In this document: piece by piece, positions 1,935-60,440 of the stretch
Position numbering within the stretch: position 1 is the stretch's first letter
How the letters are laid out: each line of letters starts with the position of its first letter
Virus record (IMG/VR): IMGVR_UViG_3300002703_000110
Location: 1 to 61,640 of that record
DNA length: 61,640 nt
Source: a virus
Lineage: Duplodnaviria; Caudoviricetes
Strand: one strand, 5' to 3'
Translations under genes and position numbers: made by a program
Notes under the pieces: model-generated
Seen by the model: only the letters and a program-made list of their open reading frames with translations
What the model was told of the DNA's origin: nothing
The model's database searches: none

Positions 1935-2150
1935 TCATTTTAATCCCTCAAATTTCTGTAACCATTCCAAAAATTCATCATCTTCTACATAAAAAAAATC
2001 TTTCGGCACTGGTCTTTTCTTATCAACACAAAATTGAGAATAAAGATTATAAGTCAACTGACCAAATCTCATATCTGGATGCTTTGCCCAAATAAGATAA
2101 ATAGCGCCCAAAATTTGTCGTATTCGTTGTGGATTACGCATAATCACCAA
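1935..2150 (-). CDS. YihD/DUF1040-like small protein
   Basis: MRNPxRI...IW.KHPDMRFGQL...FYVEDD pattern of this common phage family. Confidence 0.6.
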   Translation of the reverse strand: MVIMRNPQRIRQILGAIYLIWAKHPDMRFGQLTYNLYSQFCVDKKRPVPKDFFYVEDDEFLEWLQKFEGLK

Positions 2151-2709
2151 CTCTCTTCTGTGTATAATGCTTTTTTAATACCTGTTTAATACTTTTAATT
2201 CGTTCAGTGTGCGTTCCTGAAATTATATATAATGGAATCCCATAAATATCACACCAGATTGGAACCATCTGTGTTAAATAAGTATAAACCCATTCTTGCA
2301 TATCTTCATCCATTTCCCGAATGCCATTATCTTCAAGTTCAAAATAATCATCAATGAAAATAACAGCATCATATGGCTTATTAATCATATGTCTATTAAA
2401 ATAAGACATATATTCATCATATGCATCAATAAATAATTTCTTGGACGGTGCATTACGATAATGATATGTAAAATATGCAAGATTATCCATAACAGAACGA
2501 TCAGAAATAAAATTTGTATATTTCTCTTCGGTCTGAATTTGCTTTTTGATAATTTTAATTTGTGTTGACAGTTGTTTGCGTTCAGTTTTTGTAAATCCAC
2601 CAGCAATTTCAAGAATTATATCATGATTCTTAAATATTTTATGCTTATGAATATCATTTATTAATGTAGTTTTTCCACAATTACTAGTCCCAATTAGTGC
2701 TACCCTCAT
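2134..2709 (-). CDS. P-loop kinase (AAA_28/NadR-like, possibly nucleotide kinase)
   Basis: Walker A GTSNCGKTT, FISDRS motif, DNGIR lid. Confidence 0.7.
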   Translation of the reverse strand: MRVALIGTSNCGKTTLINDIHKHKIFKNHDIILEIAGGFTKTERKQLSTQIKIIKKQIQTEEKYTNFISDRSVMDNLAYFTYHYRNAPSKKLFIDAYDEYMSYFNRHMINKPYDAVIFIDDYFELEDNGIREMDEDMQEWVYTYLTQMVPIWCDIYGIPLYIISGTHTERIKSIKQVLKKHYTQKRVGDYA

Positions 2710-2863: not shown

Positions 2864-3172
2864 TCACTTTTCATTTTTCTCATTATCCTTTATTTTGTTA
2901 TTTCTGCCTTGCCGTAGTTTCTCAATATGTTCTGGCTTCAATACGCGACGCGGTGCTTTGTTTTTATTATAAGGCATAAAAGGATGTAATGGACATTCTT
3001 TGCACCCACAATCCCCCGCACCATCATCATATTCAGACATACATATATAACAATATGCCTTAATCGCCGCAGATGCAGGGATTTTATTACCTTTCTTAAA
3101 TTCAAGATATTCTTTGCGTCCCTGATGGCGTTTACCGCGTCCAATTTCTGGCTCACTTTTCTTCGGTGGCAT
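2864..3172 (-). CDS. Zn-binding hypothetical protein
   Basis: AIKAYCYICM...C...CPLHPF motif seen in many viral proteins. Confidence 0.55.
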   Translation of the reverse strand: MPPKKSEPEIGRGKRHQGRKEYLEFKKGNKIPASAAIKAYCYICMSEYDDGAGDCGCKECPLHPFMPYNKNKAPRRVLKPEHIEKLRQGRNNKIKDNEKNEK

Positions 3173-3422
3173 TGTGTTTCCTCTGTGTTGTTTTATGTCT
3201 AAAAAGATTAATCATCTGTGTTGCTAAAAATTCTGCTGGGCACCCACAACGGTGCCAAGTAAATCCAAGATTAATACATTCACCGTCTTCATCTTCTCTA
3301 TAATCATACGCCATTAATTTATATTTATTTACACTTAATGGATCTGTAGAACCCTCAACACGCTGCGCGGATAAAACAACAAGTGGCGTATTATTTATCT
3401 GAATTTTTATAATAAGTGACAT
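3153..3422 (-). CDS. Hypothetical protein
   Basis: 89-aa ORF in operon context. Confidence 0.5.
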   Translation of the reverse strand: MSLIIKIQINNTPLVVLSAQRVEGSTDPLSVNKYKLMAYDYREDEDGECINLGFTWHRCGCPAEFLATQMINLFRHKTTQRKHNATEEK

Positions 3423-3737
3423 TATGCACCAAATATTTTATCCTGACATTTCTGGCACAGACCACCAACTCTATATTCTCTGTATGATAATTCATCTCTA
3501 AATTCGCCAACTTTACATTTACAAAGAGGGCAGCGGCCTTCATTTATAAGTTTCATAGCAGCAAAAAATTCTTTTGTCATAATATTACCTCAAAATTAAT
3601 GAGAATATAATGCCAAACATTAACCCACCAACAAAACAAAGAATACGATGTAACCATATCCATTCATTTGAAACAATATAAGAATTTTTAGATGATTGAT
3701 CTCCATCCTGATATGGAACTACTTCTAATTCAATCAT

Positions 3738-5009
3738 TTAAGATGCCTCCTCAATGTCTACAACGCCAGTGTCCTTAATTATACCTTCAAGAACCTTAAA
3801 TTCAAATGACTTGTGTTTATATGCTTCCCATTTTGACCCATCTATACGAACAACAACACCTTCCCTAATATGTTTTGGAGTGAGTGTCGAAGCACCATTA
3901 GCACAACGCTCTACGAATGCAATTGCATCATCTGGATTATCTACAATCATTGTCGAAAGAACTGGAATAAATGAAACTTCAAGTTCTTTACAGCGTTTGA
4001 TAATATGTTCCGTGGTATAGTCTATTTCAACGCCATCTTCATTGGTCATTGTAATTCTATAAACATACACACCGCACAGCCCTTCTGGATAACCATAATT
4101 AAATACTGTTTCTTCGCCGTATTGTTTTACAAATGCTTTATCTTTCAGTTTAAGATTATTTACCGCTGGCATAATACTACCAGAAGGTGTATAACCAACA
4201 ATTTCATAATAAACAGTTTCACCTTTATGAAGTTTATTTTCAAAATACATATGCGCGTGTGCACGAATTACTTCATCTGCACCATACCACCCGTCGATGC
4301 GCTCAAAATTTTTAATTACCACACGGCGGGAACCTGCAACATATTTCCACTCCTTTTTTGGGGAAATAATCTCACGTTTGAAAAGTCCATTTATAAAAGA
4401 ACTAATCCAAGACTGTGATACTGATAATGTATAAGCAGACCTACCAGATGTGCCATGAAGTTTTTCTGTAATTACAAGCACATTGCCTTGCCTGATACGA
4501 TTTTTATTATATACAAGTTGTTCCGTATCAATATGTCTATGGAAGCATGGAAATTTCACTTTGGGCTGTGCTTTCTTCTTCTGTCCAGCATATTCTTTGG
4601 TTTTTGTAGTAATATACTTTTCACAAATTTTATGCCCGCTGATCTCTGTAAATTGTGTGCCGTTGGTTAGAGTTGTAAAATCAACATTAGTATATGTTAG
4701 ATATGTTAGTGGACAATAAAACCCATCACTTTTTTCTTTTCTAAATTTTTGCGTTCTTACATGGCCTTTTTCATCAAAAAATCCACCACTTCTGTTGCCA
4801 TTTTCGTCAATCTTCCCAATCAAATTATTTGATTCCATAAATTCTATTGAAAGCCGACCACCCGTTGGAAAATAAATTCCAAGTTCATCTTCTTTTGTAT
4901 CAAGCCCGACAACTACTTGATTTCCAAAACATTCACCAAGAAGAAGCCTGTCTGCATCTGGATGTTTTCTCACATTTCTAATTCTAGTAATATATGCATT
5001 ATACGTCAT
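3738..5009 (-). CDS. RNA ligase, DRB0094/Rnl5-like with N-terminal OB-like domain
   Basis: HPDADRL N-terminal motif; nucleotidyltransferase motifs TEKLHGT, YYEIVG, REGVVVR, YKHKS. Confidence 0.85.
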   Translation of the reverse strand: MTYNAYITRIRNVRKHPDADRLLLGECFGNQVVVGLDTKEDELGIYFPTGGRLSIEFMESNNLIGKIDENGNRSGGFFDEKGHVRTQKFRKEKSDGFYCPLTYLTYTNVDFTTLTNGTQFTEISGHKICEKYITTKTKEYAGQKKKAQPKVKFPCFHRHIDTEQLVYNKNRIRQGNVLVITEKLHGTSGRSAYTLSVSQSWISSFINGLFKREIISPKKEWKYVAGSRRVVIKNFERIDGWYGADEVIRAHAHMYFENKLHKGETVYYEIVGYTPSGSIMPAVNNLKLKDKAFVKQYGEETVFNYGYPEGLCGVYVYRITMTNEDGVEIDYTTEHIIKRCKELEVSFIPVLSTMIVDNPDDAIAFVERCANGASTLTPKHIREGVVVRIDGSKWEAYKHKSFEFKVLEGIIKDTGVVDIEEAS

Positions 5010-9147: not shown

Positions 9148-9410
9148 ACATCTTGCCGTTCTTCTTCAACAATTGCCTGTGTTAGTTCATACACAACAAT
9201 CTCGCAGCCGGAATAATATTCTGGTGTTTTATCTATATAAATATATTTCTTGGTTTCAAAATCATATTTACAACGGTCTTTAAATTGATTAAGATGATTT
9301 TTAAAGTGTCCAATTTGATTCCATGTTTTGCCCGTTTTACTCCATTTAGGCACCATGCCACCTGTAGAAAAAAGCCCATCGGATTTTCTGCGAATTTTAT
9401 AAATTTTCAT
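9141..9410 (-). CDS. Hypothetical protein
   Basis: GLFSTGG..PKWSKTGKTW pattern typical of small phage proteins. Confidence 0.55.
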   Translation of the reverse strand: MKIYKIRRKSDGLFSTGGMVPKWSKTGKTWNQIGHFKNHLNQFKDRCKYDFETKKYIYIDKTPEYYSGCEIVVYELTQAIVEEERQDVC

Positions 9411-9412
9411 AA

Positions 9413-10597
9413 TTACACCATTACTTCTGCCAGTGCTTTGAGATATTTATTATGATTATTCTCAATTTTCGGCTTAATAATATTCATATCATCAACATGC
9501 ATTCCCTTCAGAATAACATATCGCATAACATCGGCAACTGGAAGGTTTTTGACGGTATGAAGTTTTGTAATCTGATTAATGGCACGATAAGACAGAATAA
9601 TTTTAATTCCCGCCTCTTCGGTAATTTTGCGCAGGGCATGAATTGCGTCAACCAGTTCAACATCACCATTTGCGATAATGCGCTCAACCTGCTCATCATA
9701 TGTTATATCAACAACAGCAAAACGGTCAAGGCTCGCACCATCTAATTGATAACGCCCTACATATGTCTGATTAGCACCACTCCCGAAAGTATTGCCCGCC
9801 GCAATGATCCTAAACTCTGGATGCGCGTCAAATTTGCCATGTGGGAAATTAAAGTATTTATTTTCAATTGCCGCATTAAGAAGGACAAGCACCTCTGGAA
9901 TAGATGCATCAATCTCATCAAAGAAGAACAGCCCACCTTTCGTGAATGCATCAAAAAACTGCGTGGTGTGGAAGTTGCCATTCGCATCAATAAAACCAGT
10001 CACTTTGTATTCATTTGTGATTGCATTTGAGAAATAAAAATCCAAGTCAAGCGCATCGGCAATCTGTTTTACCATATGATTTTTACCACAGCCCGCTTCT
10101 CCACGAAGAAAAACAGGAACATCGGCAGTCACCATTGTTACAATATCGGGGAATTTTTCGTGGGTTATTTCTTTAATTTTCTTGGGAGATTTACCCTCTT
10201 TTTCAATTGTGATAATTCTTTTTGGAATTTCGCCAAATTCTGCCGTTAATTCGTCAACAACACGCTTTTTTGCGAGTGTAATCTGTGTTTCTGCTTCGTT
10301 GGCGATGGCTTTAATATCACCACCAACACTGTCTTTTATATCTTTTACAGATTTATTTACAAACTGTGTTACCATCTTGTTAACAATTTTTTGAACCTTT
10401 ACTTTGTCAATTTTAACTTCTGCCGTATTAGTAGACTGTTCAACAACAATGGTATCGTCATTTGTCATATCACAGTTTTCACAATAAACCTTACGTGCTG
10501 GACGATCCCATTTAACAACACTACCTCTCGCAATAGTCTTCCCGCATTTGCCACACTTCGTATCGAATTTTGAAATAATCTCAATTAAATCAGCCAT
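9413..10597 (-). CDS. MoxR/CbbQ-like AAA+ ATPase with N-terminal Zn finger
   Basis: Walker A GEAGCGKN, Walker B FFFDEID, AAGNT.G.G, LDRF; N-terminal CGKC...CENC. Confidence 0.85.
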   Translation of the reverse strand: MADLIEIISKFDTKCGKCGKTIARGSVVKWDRPARKVYCENCDMTNDDTIVVEQSTNTAEVKIDKVKVQKIVNKMVTQFVNKSVKDIKDSVGGDIKAIANEAETQITLAKKRVVDELTAEFGEIPKRIITIEKEGKSPKKIKEITHEKFPDIVTMVTADVPVFLRGEAGCGKNHMVKQIADALDLDFYFSNAITNEYKVTGFIDANGNFHTTQFFDAFTKGGLFFFDEIDASIPEVLVLLNAAIENKYFNFPHGKFDAHPEFRIIAAGNTFGSGANQTYVGRYQLDGASLDRFAVVDITYDEQVERIIANGDVELVDAIHALRKITEEAGIKIILSYRAINQITKLHTVKNLPVADVMRYVILKGMHVDDMNIIKPKIENNHNKYLKALAEVMV

Positions 10598-56354: not shown

Positions 56355-56426
56355 TGCACATAAACAGAATCGGACTGTTGATATCTTCTCTGTAAAAGAA
56401 GCACCTTTCCACTAGGTTATACGTGC
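56355..56426 (-). tRNA. tRNA-Val(TAC)
   Basis: Cloverleaf; anticodon arm CTTCT-TTTACAG-AGAAG. Confidence 0.8.
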
Positions 56427-56444
56427 CATTTTTCAAACTTCATA

Positions 56445-56526
56445 CGTCAGCAGAAGGACTTGAACCTTCGAGAGCAATGCCCCACAGGTTAGCAACCTGC
56501 TACCGTGACCTCTTGGTTATGCTGAC
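56445..56526 (-). tRNA. tRNA-Ser(GCT)
   Basis: GCAGG-TTGCTAA-CCTGT, long variable arm, TTCAAGT T-loop, G73. Confidence 0.9.
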
Positions 56527-56534
56527 AATAATAA

Positions 56535-56608
56535 GGTGGCTGAATTGATTATTCGCGGGTCTAACGATACGTCAACCATTTAACTTCACCCGATTAAATT
56601 GAAGCACC
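56535..56608 (-). ncRNA. Small structured non-tRNA element between tRNAs
   Basis: Terminal GGTGCT/AGCCACC helix, CGGGT/ACCCG helix, inner TTGACG/CGTTAG hairpin. Confidence 0.4.
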
Positions 56609-56614
56609 ACAAAA

Positions 56615-56685
56615 TGGACTATACGGGTAATGCTCCCGTGCTATCGGATTAAAAGTCCGATGTGCTACTATTACACCAATAGTCC
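56615..56685 (-). tRNA. tRNA-Lys(TTT), atypical T-loop
   Basis: TCGGA-CTTTTAA-TCCGA; T-loop AGCATTA. Confidence 0.85.
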
Positions 56686-56690
56686 AAAAA

Positions 56691-57173
56691 TTAAAGTGAT
56701 AAAATATAATTTACCAACTCTTTTGTTTTCTTCAAAGATTCAATTTGTTTATCTAAAGAACAATCTTCATATGATTTTACACAAATCTTAAGTTTAAACT
56801 TTTTTATTACTTCTTCTACTTTATCCTTTGCTATACGAAGTGATATACATCCATCACTTCCGCAAACATCTAAAACATTTGGAATTATATCAAATGTGTA
56901 ATGATAATTACCAGCACAAGAGAGATTTAAAAATTCGTCTTCCCAATCAGATTCATCATCCGCATCACCAAAATACGAGAAATAATAATGAATAGAAGAT
57001 TTAATATCATATTCAAATTTCCATTGGGGTTTTGAAATAAGCCCAGAATCAATAATTAATTGTTGCCTCTCATTTGTTATAAATTCATCTATTTCATTTG
57101 CTTTTTCCCGCAATTTAGAACTTTGATTATAAAGTTCCTTTTTTTGTTTTAGTAACTCATCGAGTTTTGTCAT
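56691..57173 (-). CDS. Hypothetical protein
   Basis: 160-aa ORF downstream of a conserved promoter motif. Confidence 0.55.
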   Translation of the reverse strand: MTKLDELLKQKKELYNQSSKLREKANEIDEFITNERQQLIIDSGLISKPQWKFEYDIKSSIHYYFSYFGDADDESDWEDEFLNLSCAGNYHYTFDIIPNVLDVCGSDGCISLRIAKDKVEEVIKKFKLKICVKSYEDCSLDKQIESLKKTKELVNYILSL

Positions 57174-57198
57174 AACAACTTCCCATTTAGTATTTGTT

Positions 57199-57211
57199 TT
57201 AAAAGTATTTA
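57199..57211 (-). promoter_or_regulatory. Conserved viral promoter core TAAATACTTTTAA
   Basis: Identical 13-mer also at 58635..58647 and 61405..61417, each upstream of a minus-strand gene. Confidence 0.6.
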
Positions 57212-57218
57212 ATACTTA

Positions 57219-57512
57219 CTAACACCACAATAATTCATTAACTTCTTGTTTTAATTCTATAAGTTTTTTTAAACTATCTCCATGACACCGCTTTGGTTTA
57301 CAAAAACAACCAAAACGCCTTGCTTTCATCAGTGGTGATAAATCAAGTTTTGGGATAATATATTTTTCATAAAGATCAATCACACGGTCGCGCTCCGCCA
57401 CTGTGTTATTTTTTATTCTAAAAGGATTTCCCCACGGAGAGCCACGACCAATATAAACATCGCCCTCTTTACCCCAATCTTTACAAGTTTTTAAATTAAT
57501 AACTTTAACCAT
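57219..57512 (-). CDS. DUF4326 family protein
   Basis: DVYIGRGSPWGNPF...GCFCKP..CHGD.L. Confidence 0.85.
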   Translation of the reverse strand: MVKVINLKTCKDWGKEGDVYIGRGSPWGNPFRIKNNTVAERDRVIDLYEKYIIPKLDLSPLMKARRFGCFCKPKRCHGDSLKKLIELKQEVNELLWC

Positions 57513-57513
57513 A

Positions 57514-57584
57514 TACGGTATGTGGGAATTGAACCCACGATCTCTCGTTGGAAGCGAGAAATATTTCCACTATACTAATACCGT
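57514..57584 (-). tRNA. tRNA-Gly(TCC)
   Basis: TCTCG-CTTCCAA-CGAGA; TTCAATT T-loop. Confidence 0.9.
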
Positions 57585-58058
57585 TTATCTGTGGTAGTTA
57601 TATGGTCTACCATTACCATTGTTTTTTGAACCATAGTTTTCAGTAAAAGCATGACAATTTTTACACAACAATTTTAAATTACTTCTTTTATTATTTTTAA
57701 AATTACCATCAATATGATGAACATCCAATGAAATTGATTTGCCCATCCATTCGTGTAATCCGCATTCCTCACACTTATGTTATCTTTCTTGTATTAATAT
57801 TTTTCTTACTGTTTTTGGAGAAACATACATTCCACAATTAAATTTATTAATATTATCTGATTTAATAGATTTTTTATAACAAATTAAACATATTATATTG
57901 TCTGTGTGTCTAGGATTTTTGACAATTGCATTACATACTTTACAATGATAAACTTTCTTTTTTAATTTATTTCTAAAACTTGCAGCACAACTTCTATTAC
58001 AAAAAATATTATGTGGTTTATTTATTATTTCTTTTCCATACTATAAACAGATATTCAT
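57585..58058 (-). pseudogene. Inactivated HNH homing endonuclease
   Basis: One frame: MNICL*YGK...FCNRSC...IQER*HKCEECG...LDVHHIDG...NLKLLCKNCHA; internal TAG and TAA. Confidence 0.85.
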
Positions 58059-58073
58059 TATTATTCTCCAATA

Positions 58074-58144
58074 CGCTTAATGTGGGTAATGCTCCCACTT
58101 CTCATCCGTGACAGGAATGCATACTGCTTCTATACTAATTAAGC
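58074..58144 (-). tRNA. tRNA-Asp(GTC), atypical T-loop
   Basis: CATTC-CTGTCAC-GGATG; T-loop AGCATTA; G73. Confidence 0.85.
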
Positions 58145-58147
58145 AAA

Positions 58148-58220
58148 CGTGCCTAGAGCGACTTGAACGCTCAATCTTTTGGTTCGTAGCCAAACGGATT
58201 ATCCATTTTCCTATAGACAC
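58148..58220 (-). tRNA. tRNA-Arg(ACG)
   Basis: TTTGG-CTACGAA-CCAAA; canonical D and T loops. Confidence 0.9.
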
Positions 58221-58222
58221 CA

Positions 58223-58296
58223 CACTCTTGCGGAGAATTGAACTCCGATTATTTCTGATTAGAAGTCAGATGCCATATCCTTTAGGCGACAAGAGT
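58223..58296 (-). tRNA. tRNA-Arg(TCT)
   Basis: TCTGA-CTTCTAA-TCAGA. Confidence 0.9.
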
Positions 58297-58300
58297 AAAA

Positions 58301-58373
58301 TGCTTCGTGTGGAATTCGCGCCCACGTCGAGGGGTTGAAAGTCTTCCATGATTGACTGCTACACTAATGAAGC
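58301..58373 (-). tRNA. tRNA-Glu(TTC), degenerate or pseudo
   Basis: Acceptor and T stems present; anticodon stem poorly paired around CTTTCAA. Confidence 0.6.
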
Positions 58374-58376
58374 CTA

Positions 58377-58448
58377 TCTCAACAGCAGGAATTGAACCTG
58401 CATCATTTCGATCTACAGTTGAGTGCAAAACCATTATGCTATGTTGAG
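58377..58448 (-). tRNA. tRNA-Tyr(GTA), archaeal type
   Basis: C1:G72, A73, short variable loop; two mismatches in the anticodon stem. Confidence 0.75.
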
Positions 58449-58460
58449 TAATAATAAATT

Positions 58461-58530
58461 TCTGGTGATTCTATGCTTCTCACCAGTTGGCTCTGTAGTC
58501 TAATACAAGACTTCTTCCGCATACCAGAGC
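58461..58530 (-). ncRNA. Small structured non-tRNA element between tRNAs
   Basis: GCTCTG/CAGAGC enclosing AGTCT/AGACT, then CTGGTGA/TCACCAG hairpin. Confidence 0.4.
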
Positions 58531-58533
58531 CAA

Positions 58534-58616
58534 TGTATGGAACAGGATTTGCACCTGTGAACTCCTACGAGAGCGCATCTTAAGTGCGCCGGGTTTTACT
58601 ACTTCCCTATCCATAC
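58534..58616 (-). tRNA. tRNA-Leu(TAA)
   Basis: GCGCA-CTTAAGA-TGCGC, long variable arm, T-loop TGCAAAT. Confidence 0.9.
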
Positions 58617-58620
58617 TCCC

Positions 58621-58650
58621 TATACATATTAGTCTTAAAAGTATTTATAA
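58621..58650 (-). promoter_or_regulatory. Promoter of the tRNA sub-array
   Basis: TTATAAATACTTTTAA....ATATGTATAG, near-identical to 61391..61420. Confidence 0.65.
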
Positions 58651-58658
58651 TTTATCAT

Positions 58659-58979
58659 TTAATTTACTGCTCTTGCTTCTTCTTTAGTAAGACCATATTT
58701 ATAACACATATCCTTAAAAATTTTACCATGTCCATCATATCCTAATTCACGAATACACTTTACATGTATAAGTTCATGCTTTAAAAGACTTATAATTTTA
58801 TTGCATGTTAAATATGCAATTGAATATTTATTAAATTCAATTTTATCACTATAAGCAAGTGCAACTATAACACGATTACCGCAACGTGAATATTTTAATG
58901 GCACTACTTTTGGAACATCCGCAATTTCAAATTCTTTGCACAACTATTCACATATTTTATTTATTTGTTCGTAATTCAT
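58659..58979 (-). pseudogene. SprT-like zinc metalloprotease, interrupted by TAG near the N-terminus (or starting at TTG 58943)
   Basis: HELIH...GHG..F motif; ATG at 58979 is in frame but codon 12 is TAG. Confidence 0.55.
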
Positions 58980-59051
58980 GATGGGATCATCTATTCTCCG
59001 TTTATCTAATGACTTTTCTTCACCAAATATTTTAAAAATATCAATCAACTA

Positions 59052-59122
59052 TGAGGTTATTGTGAATTGAACACAAACTTAATCGTCCCAAACGACCAAT
59101 CATACCGCTAGATCATAACCCC
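59052..59122 (-). tRNA. tRNA-Pro(TGG)
   Basis: GGTCG-TTTGGGA-CGATT. Confidence 0.85.
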
Positions 59123-59126
59123 AAAA

Positions 59127-59199
59127 CGGGCTAGGTAAGGTTCGAACTTACATCCACTTCGTTAACAGCGAAGCGCACCACCAATTGTGCTACCAGCCC
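59127..59199 (-). tRNA. tRNA-Asn(GTT)
   Basis: CTTCG-CTGTTAA-CGAAG; TTCGAAC T-loop. Confidence 0.9.
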
Positions 59200-59433
59200 A
59201 AAAAATTATATAAGTCCTTTTTCTAATCTCCATTTTACATATTTTGACTCATTACTAAACAATAAATTATTTATTGTAATTATATTTAAATCACCACTAT
59301 ATTTATTTGTAATAATTTCACCATCCACATTTTTTATATAAAAATATGCATGATAATTACTACCACGATATTTACGAAAATTACCACCAATGGCTTTTAT
59401 TTTTTTTCTTAATGTTTTCATTGTTATCATAAA

Positions 59434-59507
59434 TTGTAAGTGCTGGACTCGAACCAGCAGTCTTCAGATTATGGGTCTGATGAGATGTCCATTTTCTCCA
59501 ACTCACA
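59434..59507 (-). tRNA. tRNA with CAT anticodon (Met, or Ile2), C33
   Basis: TCAGA-CCCATAA-TCTGA; TTCGAGT T-loop. Confidence 0.8.
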
Positions 59508-59735
59508 GAATATATATGTATGGCAGGGCAACTTTAGAACTATAATAAGCGCAATTCTACCATACACCAACTATACAAATTTCTAACATAATAAATATAT
59601 TCTACTATCAACCTACCGATTCGTAGTCTCAATAAAACATTGCACCACTTTAATAATAAGATGTGGTCATACGGTTGCGCTTACTCCTTGGACGAAGCCA
59701 TTTACTGTAATTTAGACATTGGCGCAATATAATAC

Positions 59736-59817
59736 TACTCGCTCATATTCCGATTGGCCTATCAGATATGACTTGATAATATTTGCAACTATTATCTCGA
59801 ACCCACGGTTACGAGTA
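59736..59817 (-). ncRNA. Four-way-junction tRNA-like RNA
   Basis: TACTCGT/GCGAGTA closing stem with three internal hairpins; begins immediately 3' of tRNA-Thr. Confidence 0.5.
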
Positions 59818-59818
59818 A

Positions 59819-59891
59819 AGCCAGTGACGGGGATCGAACCCGCTATTTCTCGCTTACAAGGCGAGCACCGTGCCATTACGGTTCCACTGGC
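59819..59891 (-). tRNA. tRNA-Thr(TGT)
   Basis: CTCGC-CTTGTAA-GCGAG; U73. Confidence 0.9.
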
Positions 59892-60010
59892 AAAAATTAT
59901 TATAGAGATTATTATTTGAAAACTTCGTAAGGAAACCTCTATAATTTTTTATTTTCTAGTTCTCTACCAAAATTATGAAAAAGAATAGTTTAACGTGTTA
60001 TTCAGCACCA

Positions 60011-60084
60011 TGCGCCATAACGGATTTGCACCGTTGTATCCACCTTTATAAGAAGTGTGCCGTAACTATCTTGGCTAATAGCGC
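60011..60084 (-). tRNA. tRNA-Ile(TAT)
   Basis: CACTT-CTTATAA-AGGTG; T-loop TGCAAAT. Confidence 0.85.
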
Positions 60085-60292
60085 AGAAAAATTTTATCTA
60101 TGATCTACAATCCAATCTCTTATTTCTTGTATCTCTGGGTGCATAGAACCAACTTTGTTTCCATCTTTAACAGTTTTCCAGAACCACACAGTAAATTCTA
60201 CATTTGCATAATTATATCCTCTATAGAAATCTTTGTTTTCAGTCTCAAACACAACTTCTGATGCTTCTTTCAAATCTACCATAATATCACCA

Positions 60293-60364
60293 TGCACGAT
60301 ACTGGACTCGAACCAGCGATCTCTTGCTTATCAGACAAGTGCATTCCCTCTATGCTAATCGTGC
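60293..60364 (-). tRNA. tRNA-Ile(GAT)
   Basis: CTTGT-CTGATAA-GCAAG. Confidence 0.9.
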
Positions 60365-60368
60365 TTAA

Positions 60369-60440
60369 TTCTCCCGGCCAGAGTTGCACTGACATCACCA
60401 GATCCAAAGTCTAGCATGATTACTATTACACTACGGGAGT
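60369..60440 (-). tRNA. tRNA-Gln(TTG)
   Basis: CTAGA-CTTTGGA-TCTGG; T-loop TGCAACT; 1:72 mismatch. Confidence 0.8.

Follow-up and report, generated by a model that had tools for sequence, protein, structure and literature searches.

Coupled A18/G55 substitutions in the elbow of six phage-encoded tRNAs

The canonical tRNA elbow is held by the G18-pseudouridine-55, G19-C56 and T54-A58 contacts. The window, by which we mean the whole stretch of 61,640 nucleotides that was analysed, is a complete phage genome of 61.6 kb with 17 tRNA genes, all on the minus strand. Six of these genes have A at position 18 and G at position 55, which raises the question of whether they encode damaged tRNAs or tRNAs whose elbow is locked in another way.

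The seventeen tRNA genes of the phage

With ARAGORN at a lowered threshold, 17 tRNAs were called on the minus strand between 56355 and 60440, while the default settings gave 15 and missed Asp and Glu. Sixteen of the 17 score above the Rfam tRNA (RF00005) cut-off of 29 bits, the Glu-like tRNA falling below it. ARAGORN under-detects A18/G55 tRNAs. The genes are as follows.

56614..56686, minus strand: tRNA-Lys(UUU); D-loop AATAGTA (A18 G19), T-loop AGCATTA (A54 G55 C56 A57 U58); default and lowered ARAGORN; Rfam 56615-56685, 59.9 bits
58073..58145, minus strand: tRNA-Asp(GUC); D-loop AGAAGCA, T-loop AGCATTA; ARAGORN -ps80/-ps90 only, missed by default; Rfam 58074-58144, 42 bits
58301..58373, minus strand: Glu-like tRNA (UUC); D-loop AGCAGTCAA, T-loop CGCGAAT (C54 G55 C56 G57 A58); Rfam 27.5 bits (< 29); ARAGORN -ps80 gives an 8-nt anticodon loop
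58534..58616, minus strand: tRNA-Leu(UAA) with a long variable arm; D-loop AAGTAGTAAAA, T-loop TGCAAAT; default and lowered ARAGORN; Rfam 52.5 bits
60010..60085, minus strand: tRNA-Ile(UAU); D-loop AGATAGTTA, T-loop TGCAAAT; default and lowered ARAGORN; Rfam 60011-60084, 50.5 bits
60369..60440, minus strand: tRNA-Gln(UUG); D-loop AATAGTAA, T-loop TGCAACT; default and lowered ARAGORN; Rfam 48 bits
56355..60364, minus strand: the eleven canonical tRNAs, scattered among the six variants; G18-G19, U54-U55-C56 (C55 in Val)
56355-56426, minus strand: canonical Val, C55
56444-56527, minus strand: canonical Ser
57514-57584, minus strand: canonical Gly
58148-58220, minus strand: canonical Arg-ACG
58222-58297, minus strand: canonical Arg-UCU
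58377-58448, minus strand: canonical Tyr
59051-59123, minus strand: canonical Pro
59126-59200, minus strand: canonical Asn
59434-59507, minus strand: canonical Met
59819-59891, minus strand: canonical Thr
60293-60364, minus strand: canonical Ile-GAU

The sequence-only reading had reported six tRNAs with an AG D-loop and the T-loops given above, and ARAGORN recovered exactly these. AG is present and GG absent in the D-loops of Lys, Asp, Glu-like, Leu-UAA, Ile-UAU and Gln, which read A18-G19 with N54-G55-C56, whereas the other tRNAs (11/11, again as reported) have a GG D-loop and a TTC T-loop (TCC in Val), that is, G18-G19 with U54-U/C55-C56. The two changes do always co-occur (6/6 vs 0/11), a split with a probability of 1 in 12376 (C(17,6)), and G19-C56 is kept in all six. 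The six did not arise by recent copying from one another: mean pairwise identity is 57% within the variants and 57% within the canonical group, and canonical genes are interspersed. Alignment to the Rfam covariance model, which does not depend on ARAGORN, gives the register in 6/6: the A of AG aligns with the first G of the model UGGU (position 18), and the G of the variant T-loop with the second U of its GGUUC (position 55).

Judged by their sequences, five of the six variants are sound tRNAs, with a normal 7-nt anticodon loop and U33. The Glu-like gene is the exception, with three of its five anticodon-stem pairs non-standard, one mismatch in the acceptor stem and one in the D-stem; given this broken anticodon stem and the other mismatches, it may be a non-working tRNA, and it may be decaying.

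Conservation and recurrence of A18/G55

A single, diverged relative was found, L001, in which a neighbouring protein is 55% identical. A18/G55 is kept in its Leu-UAA orthologue, where both partners differ in 5 of 24 stem pairs, and in its Ile-UAU orthologue, where both partners differ in 6 of 18 pairs and one partner in one more. No pair is broken in either tRNA, and the stem changes are compensatory or wobble only.

A survey of viral tRNAs extended the co-variation beyond the window. Of 955 tRNAs taken without selection from IMG/VR contigs, 12 had G55, all 12 with A18-G19, and none combined GG with G55; in the two unselected samples the G55 counts were 8/507 (Fisher p = 1e-13) and 4/448 (p = 2e-7). 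At a laxer ARAGORN threshold, the 27 G55 tRNAs among 1103 comprised 20 with AG, none with GG and seven with neither. A pooled set of 196 G55 tRNAs (177 distinct sequences) covers all 20 amino-acid identities, and in it C56 is kept in 185/196 and AG is in register in 185/196. Four pairs of homologous tRNAs differ by exactly the double switch, AG with G55 against the canonical state, without any shift of register: Trp of L315 versus L399 (82% identical), Glu of L023 versus L315 (88%), Gln of the window versus the canonical Gln of L236 with GG and TTC (81%), and Met of L026 versus phage phi92 (84.8%). Leaving the canonical state takes two substitutions, so the two states act as discrete alleles with few intermediates.

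If AG were not really at positions 18-19, there would be no 18-55 co-variation to explain. D-loop lengths do vary, and in the survey positions 18-19 were placed by a simple rule on ARAGORN D-loops, with no structural alignment. Such an artefact is nevertheless hardly credible. The Rfam model puts A at position 18 in all six window tRNAs, and in the pooled survey the offset of AG matches that of canonical GG at equal D-loop length (for 7-nt D-loops, offset 3 in 29/30 with AG and 296/308 with GG). The four homologous pairs, moreover, show G to A at one and the same site, and the C56 retained in most G55 tRNAs calls for G19, so that G19 is expected in them.

The same data bear on whether the six are simply pseudo-tRNAs that have lost conserved elbow bases. 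In favour of decay, the Glu-like gene scores below the cut-off and has five non-standard stem pairs, the other variants score lower on Rfam (42-59.9 bits) than the canonical tRNAs (38.8-68.5 bits), and some variants are missed by default gene finders. Decay, however, would not hit the same two positions in the same way in six genes while sparing C56, purine 57, A58/U58 and the stems, nor does it fit the compensatory or wobble stem changes of the L001 orthologues or the same pairing in 12/12 unselected viral G55 tRNAs, and as an account of all six it is very improbable. The sequence-only reading had argued for compensatory redesign rather than decay; the near-exceptionless co-variation, the L001 orthologues and the kept G19-C56 uphold this in general, but the Glu-like gene may be an exception.

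The combination is thus not peculiar to the window phage, and it recurs in a few bacterial tRNAs as well. It is present in bacterial tRNA arrays, four of which have it in every tRNA called by ARAGORN; of the 24 tRNAs called in the Anabaena 7120 array, one, Glu-CUC, has it. A complete Patescibacteria genome of 680 kb has it in 1 of 45 tRNAs; only two of the 45 are CAU tRNAs, and the variant is the one that resembles an initiator. In other Patescibacteria genomes it occurs in the tRNA-Tyr of a Thr-Tyr-Thr cluster and in an elongator-like tRNA-Met. As these look like housekeeping tRNAs, the A18/G55 elbow is no virus-only device. Overall, it is rare, at about 1-2% of viral tRNAs, and clustered in certain phages and bacterial arrays: in viral loci already holding one AGCRTTA tRNA, G55 was found in 74/742 other tRNAs vs 12/955 unselected ones, and in none of 25 tRNAs of T5, 17 of the phi92 array and 8 of the SE131 array. 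Its apparent enrichment in mobile elements is judged by the single genome with 1/45 and by literature in which, in the parts available to us, G18 and U55 are conserved or virtually universal (PMC7609411, PMC4117946).

Like the phage, the bacterial arrays in our sample are rich in A18/G55, and the bacterial L-arrays described in the available part of PMC8421152 likewise have many same-strand tRNA genes with interspersed HNH endonuclease genes. They are horizontally transferred, their tRNAs are supernumerary to the host set, and they differ in being bacterial, the window being a phage genome. That text reports 23 of 26 array tRNAs charged in vivo, without naming the three uncharged ones; in the part available to us it contains no occurrence of G18, U55, T-loop or D-loop.

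A predicted second elbow lock

The reading that we favour, with a probability of roughly 0.7, is that five, possibly six, of these are working tRNAs with a second elbow lock in which A18/G55 would replace G18-pseudouridine-55. The outer G19-C56 pair would be retained and the inner contact swapped for adenine 18 and guanine 55, in the same arrangement as in T-loops of other RNA such as riboswitches, where an adenosine of the partner strand slots between loop positions 4 and 5 and bonds to the G at position 2 on its sugar edge. RNase P and rRNA also contain such T-loops. Compared with the canonical elbow, the six share the cloverleaf, the 7-nt T-loop, G19-C56, purine 57 and some 54-58 pair, and differ in having A at position 18 and G at 55, with A54 and U58 in Lys and Asp and C54 in the Glu-like tRNA. 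Chemically, G55 is no substrate for conversion to pseudouridine, nor A18 for conversion to Gm18, nor A54 or C54 for conversion to m5U. The direct consequence is an elbow that can carry neither pseudouridine-55 nor Gm18 and, where 54 is A or C, no m5U54.

According to the available part of bioRxiv 10.1101/2022.12.26.521914, non-tRNA T-loops follow UGNRA in 88.7% and CGNRA in 10.9% of cases, the base that intercalates is nearly always an adenosine making two hydrogen bonds to the G sugar edge, and tRNA departs from other T-loops by the U at loop position 2; the FMN and cobalamin riboswitch modules are of the YGNRA type, with G at position 2 and an intercalated adenosine. Four of the six phage loops, UGCAA in Leu, Ile-UAU and Gln and CGCGA in the Glu-like tRNA, match Y-G-N-R-A, and a D-loop A stands in place of G18. 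Unlike the riboswitch modules, the phage module sits in a tRNA and keeps G19-C56, and its three-dimensional contact is one that we infer from sequence. The AGCAU loops of Lys and Asp would involve an extra swap of the 54-58 pair; they lie outside the consensus at loop positions 1 and 5, which counts against this explanation, as does the damaged-looking Glu-like gene.

One caution for evidence from yeast is that position 55 there is also within the internal promoter. A yeast suppressor screen (PMC4117946) counts against the explanation as well: in the part available to us, it had G18A rescued by U20G only, with no rescue at position 55 reported. No published description of an A18-G55 tRNA elbow was found in the literature.

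Possible reasons for the variant

On the favoured reading, the variant tRNAs would be charged and used in translation. The codons that they read include the majority codons of the phage, AAA (75%), GAT (80%), GAA (77%), TTA (38% of Leu) and CAA (58%), while ATA makes up 28% of its Ile codons. That the altered elbow instead marks decoys, tRNase sponges or amino-acid donors working off the ribosome seems improbable, since the variants read the commonest codons of the phage, keep G19-C56, in 5/6 cases have the normal anticodon loop, and have an initiator-like counterpart that is one of two CAU tRNAs in a complete small genome. There are precedents for such roles. Array tRNAs have been speculated to be sponges for toxin RNases by the authors of PMC8421152, and the hypomodified, non-proteogenic staphylococcal tRNA-Gly without G18-G19 and U55 is excluded from translation (PMC13443448, in the part available), so that loss of U55 can accompany a non-translational role. 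This tRNA-Gly, mitochondrial type II tRNAs and tRNA-Pyl are natural tRNAs without G18 and U55 (PMC13443448, PMC7609411), but they also lose G19 and the docking of D-loop and T-loop, whereas the window tRNAs have a specific paired replacement.

Mobile elements would hold more of the variant most likely because tRNA genes that are redundant and evolve fast have drifted, almost neutrally, to a second fitness peak. Alternatively, along the lines of the sequence-only reading, the elbow could have been selected in phages and mobile tRNA arrays for independence from host TruB, TrmA and TrmH, or because host enzymes or toxins reading U54, U55 or G18, such as T-loop-cutting tRNases, would act poorly on it. 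The modifications ruled out by the variant bases are consistent with this, as are a toxin that cuts the tRNA T-loop between the conserved T and pseudouridine (PMC9086364), the clustering in mobile elements and the arrays that carry A18/G55 throughout. Further, an RtcB RNA ligase gene adjoins two of the five arrays with flanks scanned and a gene of the RNA ligase family is present in the phage, together a hint that tRNAs are damaged and repaired in this setting. Changes at conserved loop positions are also known from phage tRNAs that evade anticodon nucleases (PMC10264068, PMC11555353), but in the anticodon loop, and the available part of PMC10264068 has no occurrence of T-loop, D-loop or elbow. 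We consider such selection unlikely: with the variant in only 6/17 phage tRNAs, a general evasion strategy fits poorly, the variant is also found in apparently housekeeping Patescibacteria tRNAs and is absent from the T5, phi92 and SE131 sets, and no phage enzyme targeting tRNA elbows was recognised among 49 small ORFs scanned.

An elbow pair altered on both sides is also seen in phage T5, where tRNA-Ile(GAU) has A19/U56, with a GA D-loop and a TTT T-loop, and, according to the record annotation, functions as a suppressor once its anticodon is altered; the co-variation there is in the Watson-Crick 19-56 pair, not in the 18-55 contact.

Loops, register and integrity of the variant tRNAs

The contact between G18 and pseudouridine-55 is taught as a near-universal feature of tRNA. 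The phage genome considered here (an entire IMG/VR virus record, 61,640 bases, 34.4% G+C, rated complete by CheckV) has 17 tRNA genes at 56355-60440, every one on the minus strand, when ARAGORN is run at a lowered threshold. The sequence-only reading had described six of these as lacking both the D-loop GG, which reads AG, and the T-loop TTC, and its loop sequences for the six match the ARAGORN output exactly. The two changes occur together in 6/6 of these tRNAs and in 0/11 of the others, which have D-loop GG and T-loop TTC (TCC in Val); by arithmetic, the probability of this 6-versus-11 split is 1 in 12376.

Loops and Rfam scores of the six variant tRNAs
tRNA-Lys: D-loop AATAGTA, T-loop AGCATTA; 59.9 bits, model positions 1-71
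tRNA-Asp: D-loop AGAAGCA, T-loop AGCATTA; 42 bits, model positions 1-71
Glu-like tRNA: D-loop AGCAGTCAA, T-loop CGCGAAT; 27.5 bits, under the cut-off
tRNA-Leu-UAA: D-loop AAGTAGTAAAA, T-loop TGCAAAT; 52.5 bits, model positions 1-71
tRNA-Ile-UAU: D-loop AGATAGTTA, T-loop TGCAAAT; 50.5 bits, model positions 1-71
tRNA-Gln: D-loop AATAGTAA, T-loop TGCAACT; 48 bits, model positions 1-71

The register of the AG had been named beforehand as a point on which the idea of a changed elbow could fall. It does not fall there, because the Rfam alignments, which are independent of ARAGORN, put the AG at positions 18-19 in all six tRNAs. In each, the A is aligned to the first G of UGGU (position 18) and a G to the second U of GGUUC (position 55). 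None of the six thus has the canonical G18 and U55; all have A18 and G55 instead. G19 and C56 are present in 6/6, and the two are predicted to pair. At positions 54 and 58 the sequences differ: Leu, Ile-UAU and Gln have U54/A58, Lys and Asp have A54/U58, and the Glu-like tRNA has C54/A58. Five of the genes (Lys, Asp, Leu, Ile-UAU and Gln) have a full cloverleaf, in which the anticodon loop is 7 nt long and contains U33 and all 5 bp of the anticodon stem are intact. The Glu-like gene has non-standard pairs at 3/5 positions of the anticodon stem and two other mismatches, and for this reason we treat it as doubtful. Mean pairwise identity is 57% both within the six and within the eleven, and the six are interleaved with canonical genes, so they are not recent copies of one another. 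The codons that they decode are the ones the phage prefers: AAA (75%), GAT (80%), GAA (77%), CAA (58%), TTA (38% of Leu) and ATA, the last at 28% of Ile.

Standard gene-finder settings under-call these tRNAs. Default ARAGORN gives 15 of the 17 genes, Asp and the Glu-like gene (two of the six variants) being added only at the lowered threshold. With Rfam RF00005, 16/17 exceed the 29-bit gathering cut-off, the Glu-like tRNA scoring 27.5 bits, and the fast gathering mode returns 14/17, the absent ones being Leu, Ile-UAU and the Glu-like tRNA (three of the six variants); laxer filters recover Leu (52.5 bits) and Ile-UAU (50.5 bits), both skipped in gathering mode. Since default gene finders under-call the variant, the tRNA repertoires of viruses and mobile elements are probably undercounted. 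Within the array, about 280 nt of non-coding sequence follow tRNA-Thr (59540-59818, minus strand), with a T-arm-like fragment directly after the tRNA.

Co-variation of positions 18 and 55 in viral tRNAs

The sole relative that we located, an IMG/VR locus (L001) with a neighbouring protein 55% identical to that of the phage, has three called tRNAs, of which Thr is canonical and the other two, Leu-UAA and Ile-UAU, are A18/G55. Comparing the two loci, both sides are altered in 5/24 pairs of Leu with none broken, and in 6/18 pairs of Ile-UAU, with one side altered in a single pair and again none broken. Compensatory stem changes of this kind, without broken pairs, point to selection on the folded RNA. 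The proposal that the elbow reflects compensatory redesign and not decay thus gains support from two orthologous pairs that keep A18/G55 while their stems change; the Glu-like gene, with its damaged anticodon stem, may be decaying. Between Leu and Ile-UAU of the relative, at ~9379-9450, lies a stretch that by eye is tRNA-like with canonical GG and TTC; it was called neither by ARAGORN nor by Rfam, which found 2 matches in that record. About 45 nt lying 3' of tRNA-Lys (~56570-56613, minus strand) are also kept in the relative, at ~9858-9905; as a candidate structured RNA this spacer was rejected, its folding being no better than that of shuffled sequence (z = -0.3).

A single metagenome scan gave two more short contigs, both without the tRNA side; the cultured-phage collection gave no DNA or protein match to the window, and a sensitive DNA search gave short tRNA-sized matches only. 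The DNA polymerase is at most 25.7% identical to the polymerases of haloarchaeal tailed viruses. In the cultured phages that we checked, A18/G55 was found in 0/25 tRNAs of T5, 0/17 of the phi92 array and 0/8 of the SE131 array, and for two loci that bear the variant or are rich in it BLAST found no useful cultured relative.

A survey of viral tRNAs bore out the co-variation. IMG/VR was scanned for two common T-arm motifs, ARAGORN was run on the resulting loci and the motif-bearing tRNAs were set aside; positions 18-19 were assigned by a simple rule on the ARAGORN D-loops, and the counts ignore shared ancestry. A MAFFT seed alignment of the window tRNAs was poor in the D-loop, and ARAGORN loops with an offset control were used instead of a covariance model of our own.

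Unselected tRNAs in the two survey samples
First sample: 120 loci, 507 tRNAs, 8 with G55, of which 8/8 have AG without an in-register GG; G55 with GG, 0
Second sample: 109 loci, 448 tRNAs, 4 with G55, of which 4/4 have AG without an in-register GG; G55 with GG, 0

Pooled, 12/955 (1.3%) had G55, and 12/12 of these had AG and none GG. At the laxer ARAGORN threshold the share rises to 27/1103, so the default figure is probably an underestimate; these 27 comprise 20 with AG, 7 with neither dinucleotide and 0 with GG. AG together with U55 was scored in 15 tRNAs of the survey, several of which are by eye plainly not A18. A third scan, with the T-arm type of Lys and Asp, placed the motif within a called tRNA in 27/118 loci (65 at the laxer threshold), and the D-loop had AG in 27/27. 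Among the remaining tRNAs of those loci 74/742 had G55, which indicates that A18/G55 clusters by genome.

The pooled set holds 196 G55 tRNAs (177 distinct sequences), with all twenty identities represented. C56 is kept in 185/196 and an in-register AG is found in 185/196; when loop length is matched, the offset of AG in the D-loop equals that of GG in canonical tRNAs. The main T-loop types are UGCAA (72), UGCGA (62), AGCGU (33) and AGCAU (9). Homologues that differ by exactly the double switch include a Trp pair (82% identical), a Glu pair (88%), the window Gln and a canonical Gln (81%), and an initiator-like tRNA-Met from IMG/VR and the Met of coliphage phi92 (84.8%). For 72 of the 177 distinct sequences the nearest tRNA is a canonical one with the same anticodon and not a G55 tRNA of another locus, which suggests repeated switching within this limited sample. 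The 54-58 swap alone, with U55 kept (A54 U55 C56 G57 U58, 'ATCGT'), was found in 46/1917 U55 tRNAs of the pooled survey; an instance is the phi92 tRNA-Phe (locus L514, 3249-3323), which is marked as a pseudogene in its record.

Bacterial arrays and Patescibacteria

The A18/G55 elbow is not peculiar to this phage, being found in bacteria as well as in other viral tRNAs. A prokaryote scan covering one genome per species with the G55 version of a common T-arm gave at least 120 loci. A called G55 tRNA was held by 28 of the 120 matches listed, and this low yield is in line with the number of chance matches that we estimate for that T-arm in 596 billion bases, about 120. Among the matches listed were dense bacterial arrays whose called tRNAs all have A18/G55 (10/10, 6/6, 10/10 and 12/12), and a further array in which 6/14 do. 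The flanks of five arrays were scanned, and in two cases a gene for the RNA ligase RtcB adjoins the array.

RtcB genes beside A18/G55-rich bacterial arrays
L205 (survey locus), 3344-4768: E = 4.6e-87
L201 (survey locus), 2881-4329: E = 6.8e-72

The arrays are similar to the L-arrays described in PMC8421152, long same-strand runs of supernumerary tRNA genes in bacterial replicons that spread by horizontal transfer, often with an HNH endonuclease gene. That paper connects L-arrays with translational stress, and with rtcB and HNH endonucleases. Its text gives 23/26 Anabaena array tRNAs as charged in vivo and is, in that part, silent on Glu-CUC; in the array of the Anabaena/Nostoc 7120 delta plasmid (L516), Glu-CUC (c5496-5573) is the one A18/G55 tRNA of 24 called. 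The array of our phage is like an L-array in its 17 same-strand tRNA genes and its HNH remnants, but lies in a complete phage genome; this is resemblance, not membership. One HNH frame within the tRNA array is probably a decaying homing endonuclease:

57585-58028, minus strand: HNH endonuclease frame with one in-frame TAA; zinc-finger-like CxxC and HH..D..N parts directly past the TAA

Some carriers are apparently housekeeping genes. In a complete Patescibacteria genome of 680 kb (G002; loci L254 and L511), 44/45 tRNAs are canonical, and the exception with A18/G55 is initiator-like, the genome having just one other CAU tRNA. A pattern search restricted to the G55 T-arm of this initiator-like Met found it in 5/401 Patescibacteria genomes. 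Three of the five loci have ARAGORN tRNAs (L509, L510 and G002): a Tyr in a Thr-Tyr-Thr cluster, an elongator-like Met and the initiator-like Met.

Likeness to general T-loops and possible origins of the variant

The changed T-loops approach a form known from other RNAs. According to bioRxiv 10.1101/2022.12.26.521914, riboswitch T-loops are UGNRA in 88.7% and CGNRA in 10.9%. [quoted passage not shown] Four of the six loops match the general YGNRA pattern: UGCAA in Leu, Ile-UAU and Gln, and CGCGA in the Glu-like tRNA. Lys and Asp (AGCAU) deviate at positions 1 and 5, where the 54-58 pair would be swapped. The Rfam alignments of all six tRNAs place an A at the site normally held by the intercalating G18. 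By analogy with those T-loops, A18 would stack into the T-loop and bond G55, and G19-C56 would cap the elbow as usual. The D- and T-loops are not docked in mitochondrial type II tRNAs, tRNA-Pyl and the staphylococcal non-proteogenic tRNA-Gly, which have lost G18-G19 and U54-U55-C56; the six differ from these in that G19 and C56 are kept in 6/6.

What is certain is that G55 excludes pseudouridine-55, A18 excludes Gm18, and A54 or C54 excludes m5U54. Freedom from host modification, or escape from nucleases that read the elbow, was offered in the sequence-only reading as a possible reason for the change. Both ideas are possible: a toxin that cuts the T-loop is on record in a review (PMC9086364), A18/G55 clusters in mobile elements, some of them next to RNA-repair ligases, and the phage itself encodes an RNA ligase family gene. 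Against them, the variant is confined to 6/17 of the phage tRNAs, it is shared by apparently housekeeping tRNAs of Patescibacteria, and no phage enzyme directed at the tRNA elbow was recognised among 69 scanned proteins. Because of these three points we favour a plainer account, in which there would be two discrete, roughly equivalent elbow states, a two-step change apart, and redundant, fast-evolving tRNA genes of phages and transferable arrays would switch state more readily than essential genes of cells. A more far-reaching reading seems to us unlikely, with a probability of roughly 15%: that A18-G55 is a discrete, heritable second elbow allele favoured by mobile elements, which folds without pseudouridine-55, m5U54 and Gm18, is unseen by host enzymes and toxins that read the canonical loops, and, often alongside RNA-repair ligases, lets phages and transferable arrays keep translation going while the tRNAs of the host are under attack or poorly modified.

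For tRNA-directed enzymes, 20 larger proteins and 49 small ORFs of the phage gave the RNA ligase family match only; none of these proteins was recognised as a CCA-adding enzyme, a kinase-phosphatase, a modification enzyme or a tRNase.

Candidate RNA-repair genes of the phage
3738-5009, minus strand: RNA ligase family gene (PF09414 at 30 bits, cut-off 27; phrog_968, 1.5e-62)
2134-2709, minus strand: AAA_28 P-loop protein, near the RNA ligase family gene

Neither protein had a sequence match in the PDB. The pair may serve tRNA repair, but the scan of these proteins recognised no kinase-phosphatase partner.

In the openly accessible literature on tRNA elbows, phage tRNA loops, T-loop motifs and tRNA arrays we found no description of the A18/G55 co-variation, though tRNA compilations may note it; a term look-up in PMC8421152, PMC4758250, PMC7609411, PMC10264068, PMC12482277 and PMC6409571 gave no mention of it. 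A natural, strongly co-varying replacement of the G18-pseudouridine-55 contact would show tRNA using the general T-loop solution of other RNAs, and would define a class of tRNA in which three of the best-conserved modifications cannot be made. If the variant is indeed selected in mobile elements, conflict over tRNA would extend to the elbow as well as the anticodon loop.

The variant also offers a clean two-site epistasis test for an RNA tertiary contact. In the yeast screen of PMC4117946, neither G18 nor U55 tolerated a change on its own, and G18A was rescued by U20G only; this fits a deep valley between the two states of the account that we favour, while giving no direct support for a peak at A18/G55. 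An analogous double change, at the 19-56 pair, is found in the tRNA-Ile(GAU) of T5 (locus L515, c4211-4287), which has G18-A19 with U54-U55-U56. According to the note in its record, this tRNA acts as a suppressor once its anticodon is changed.
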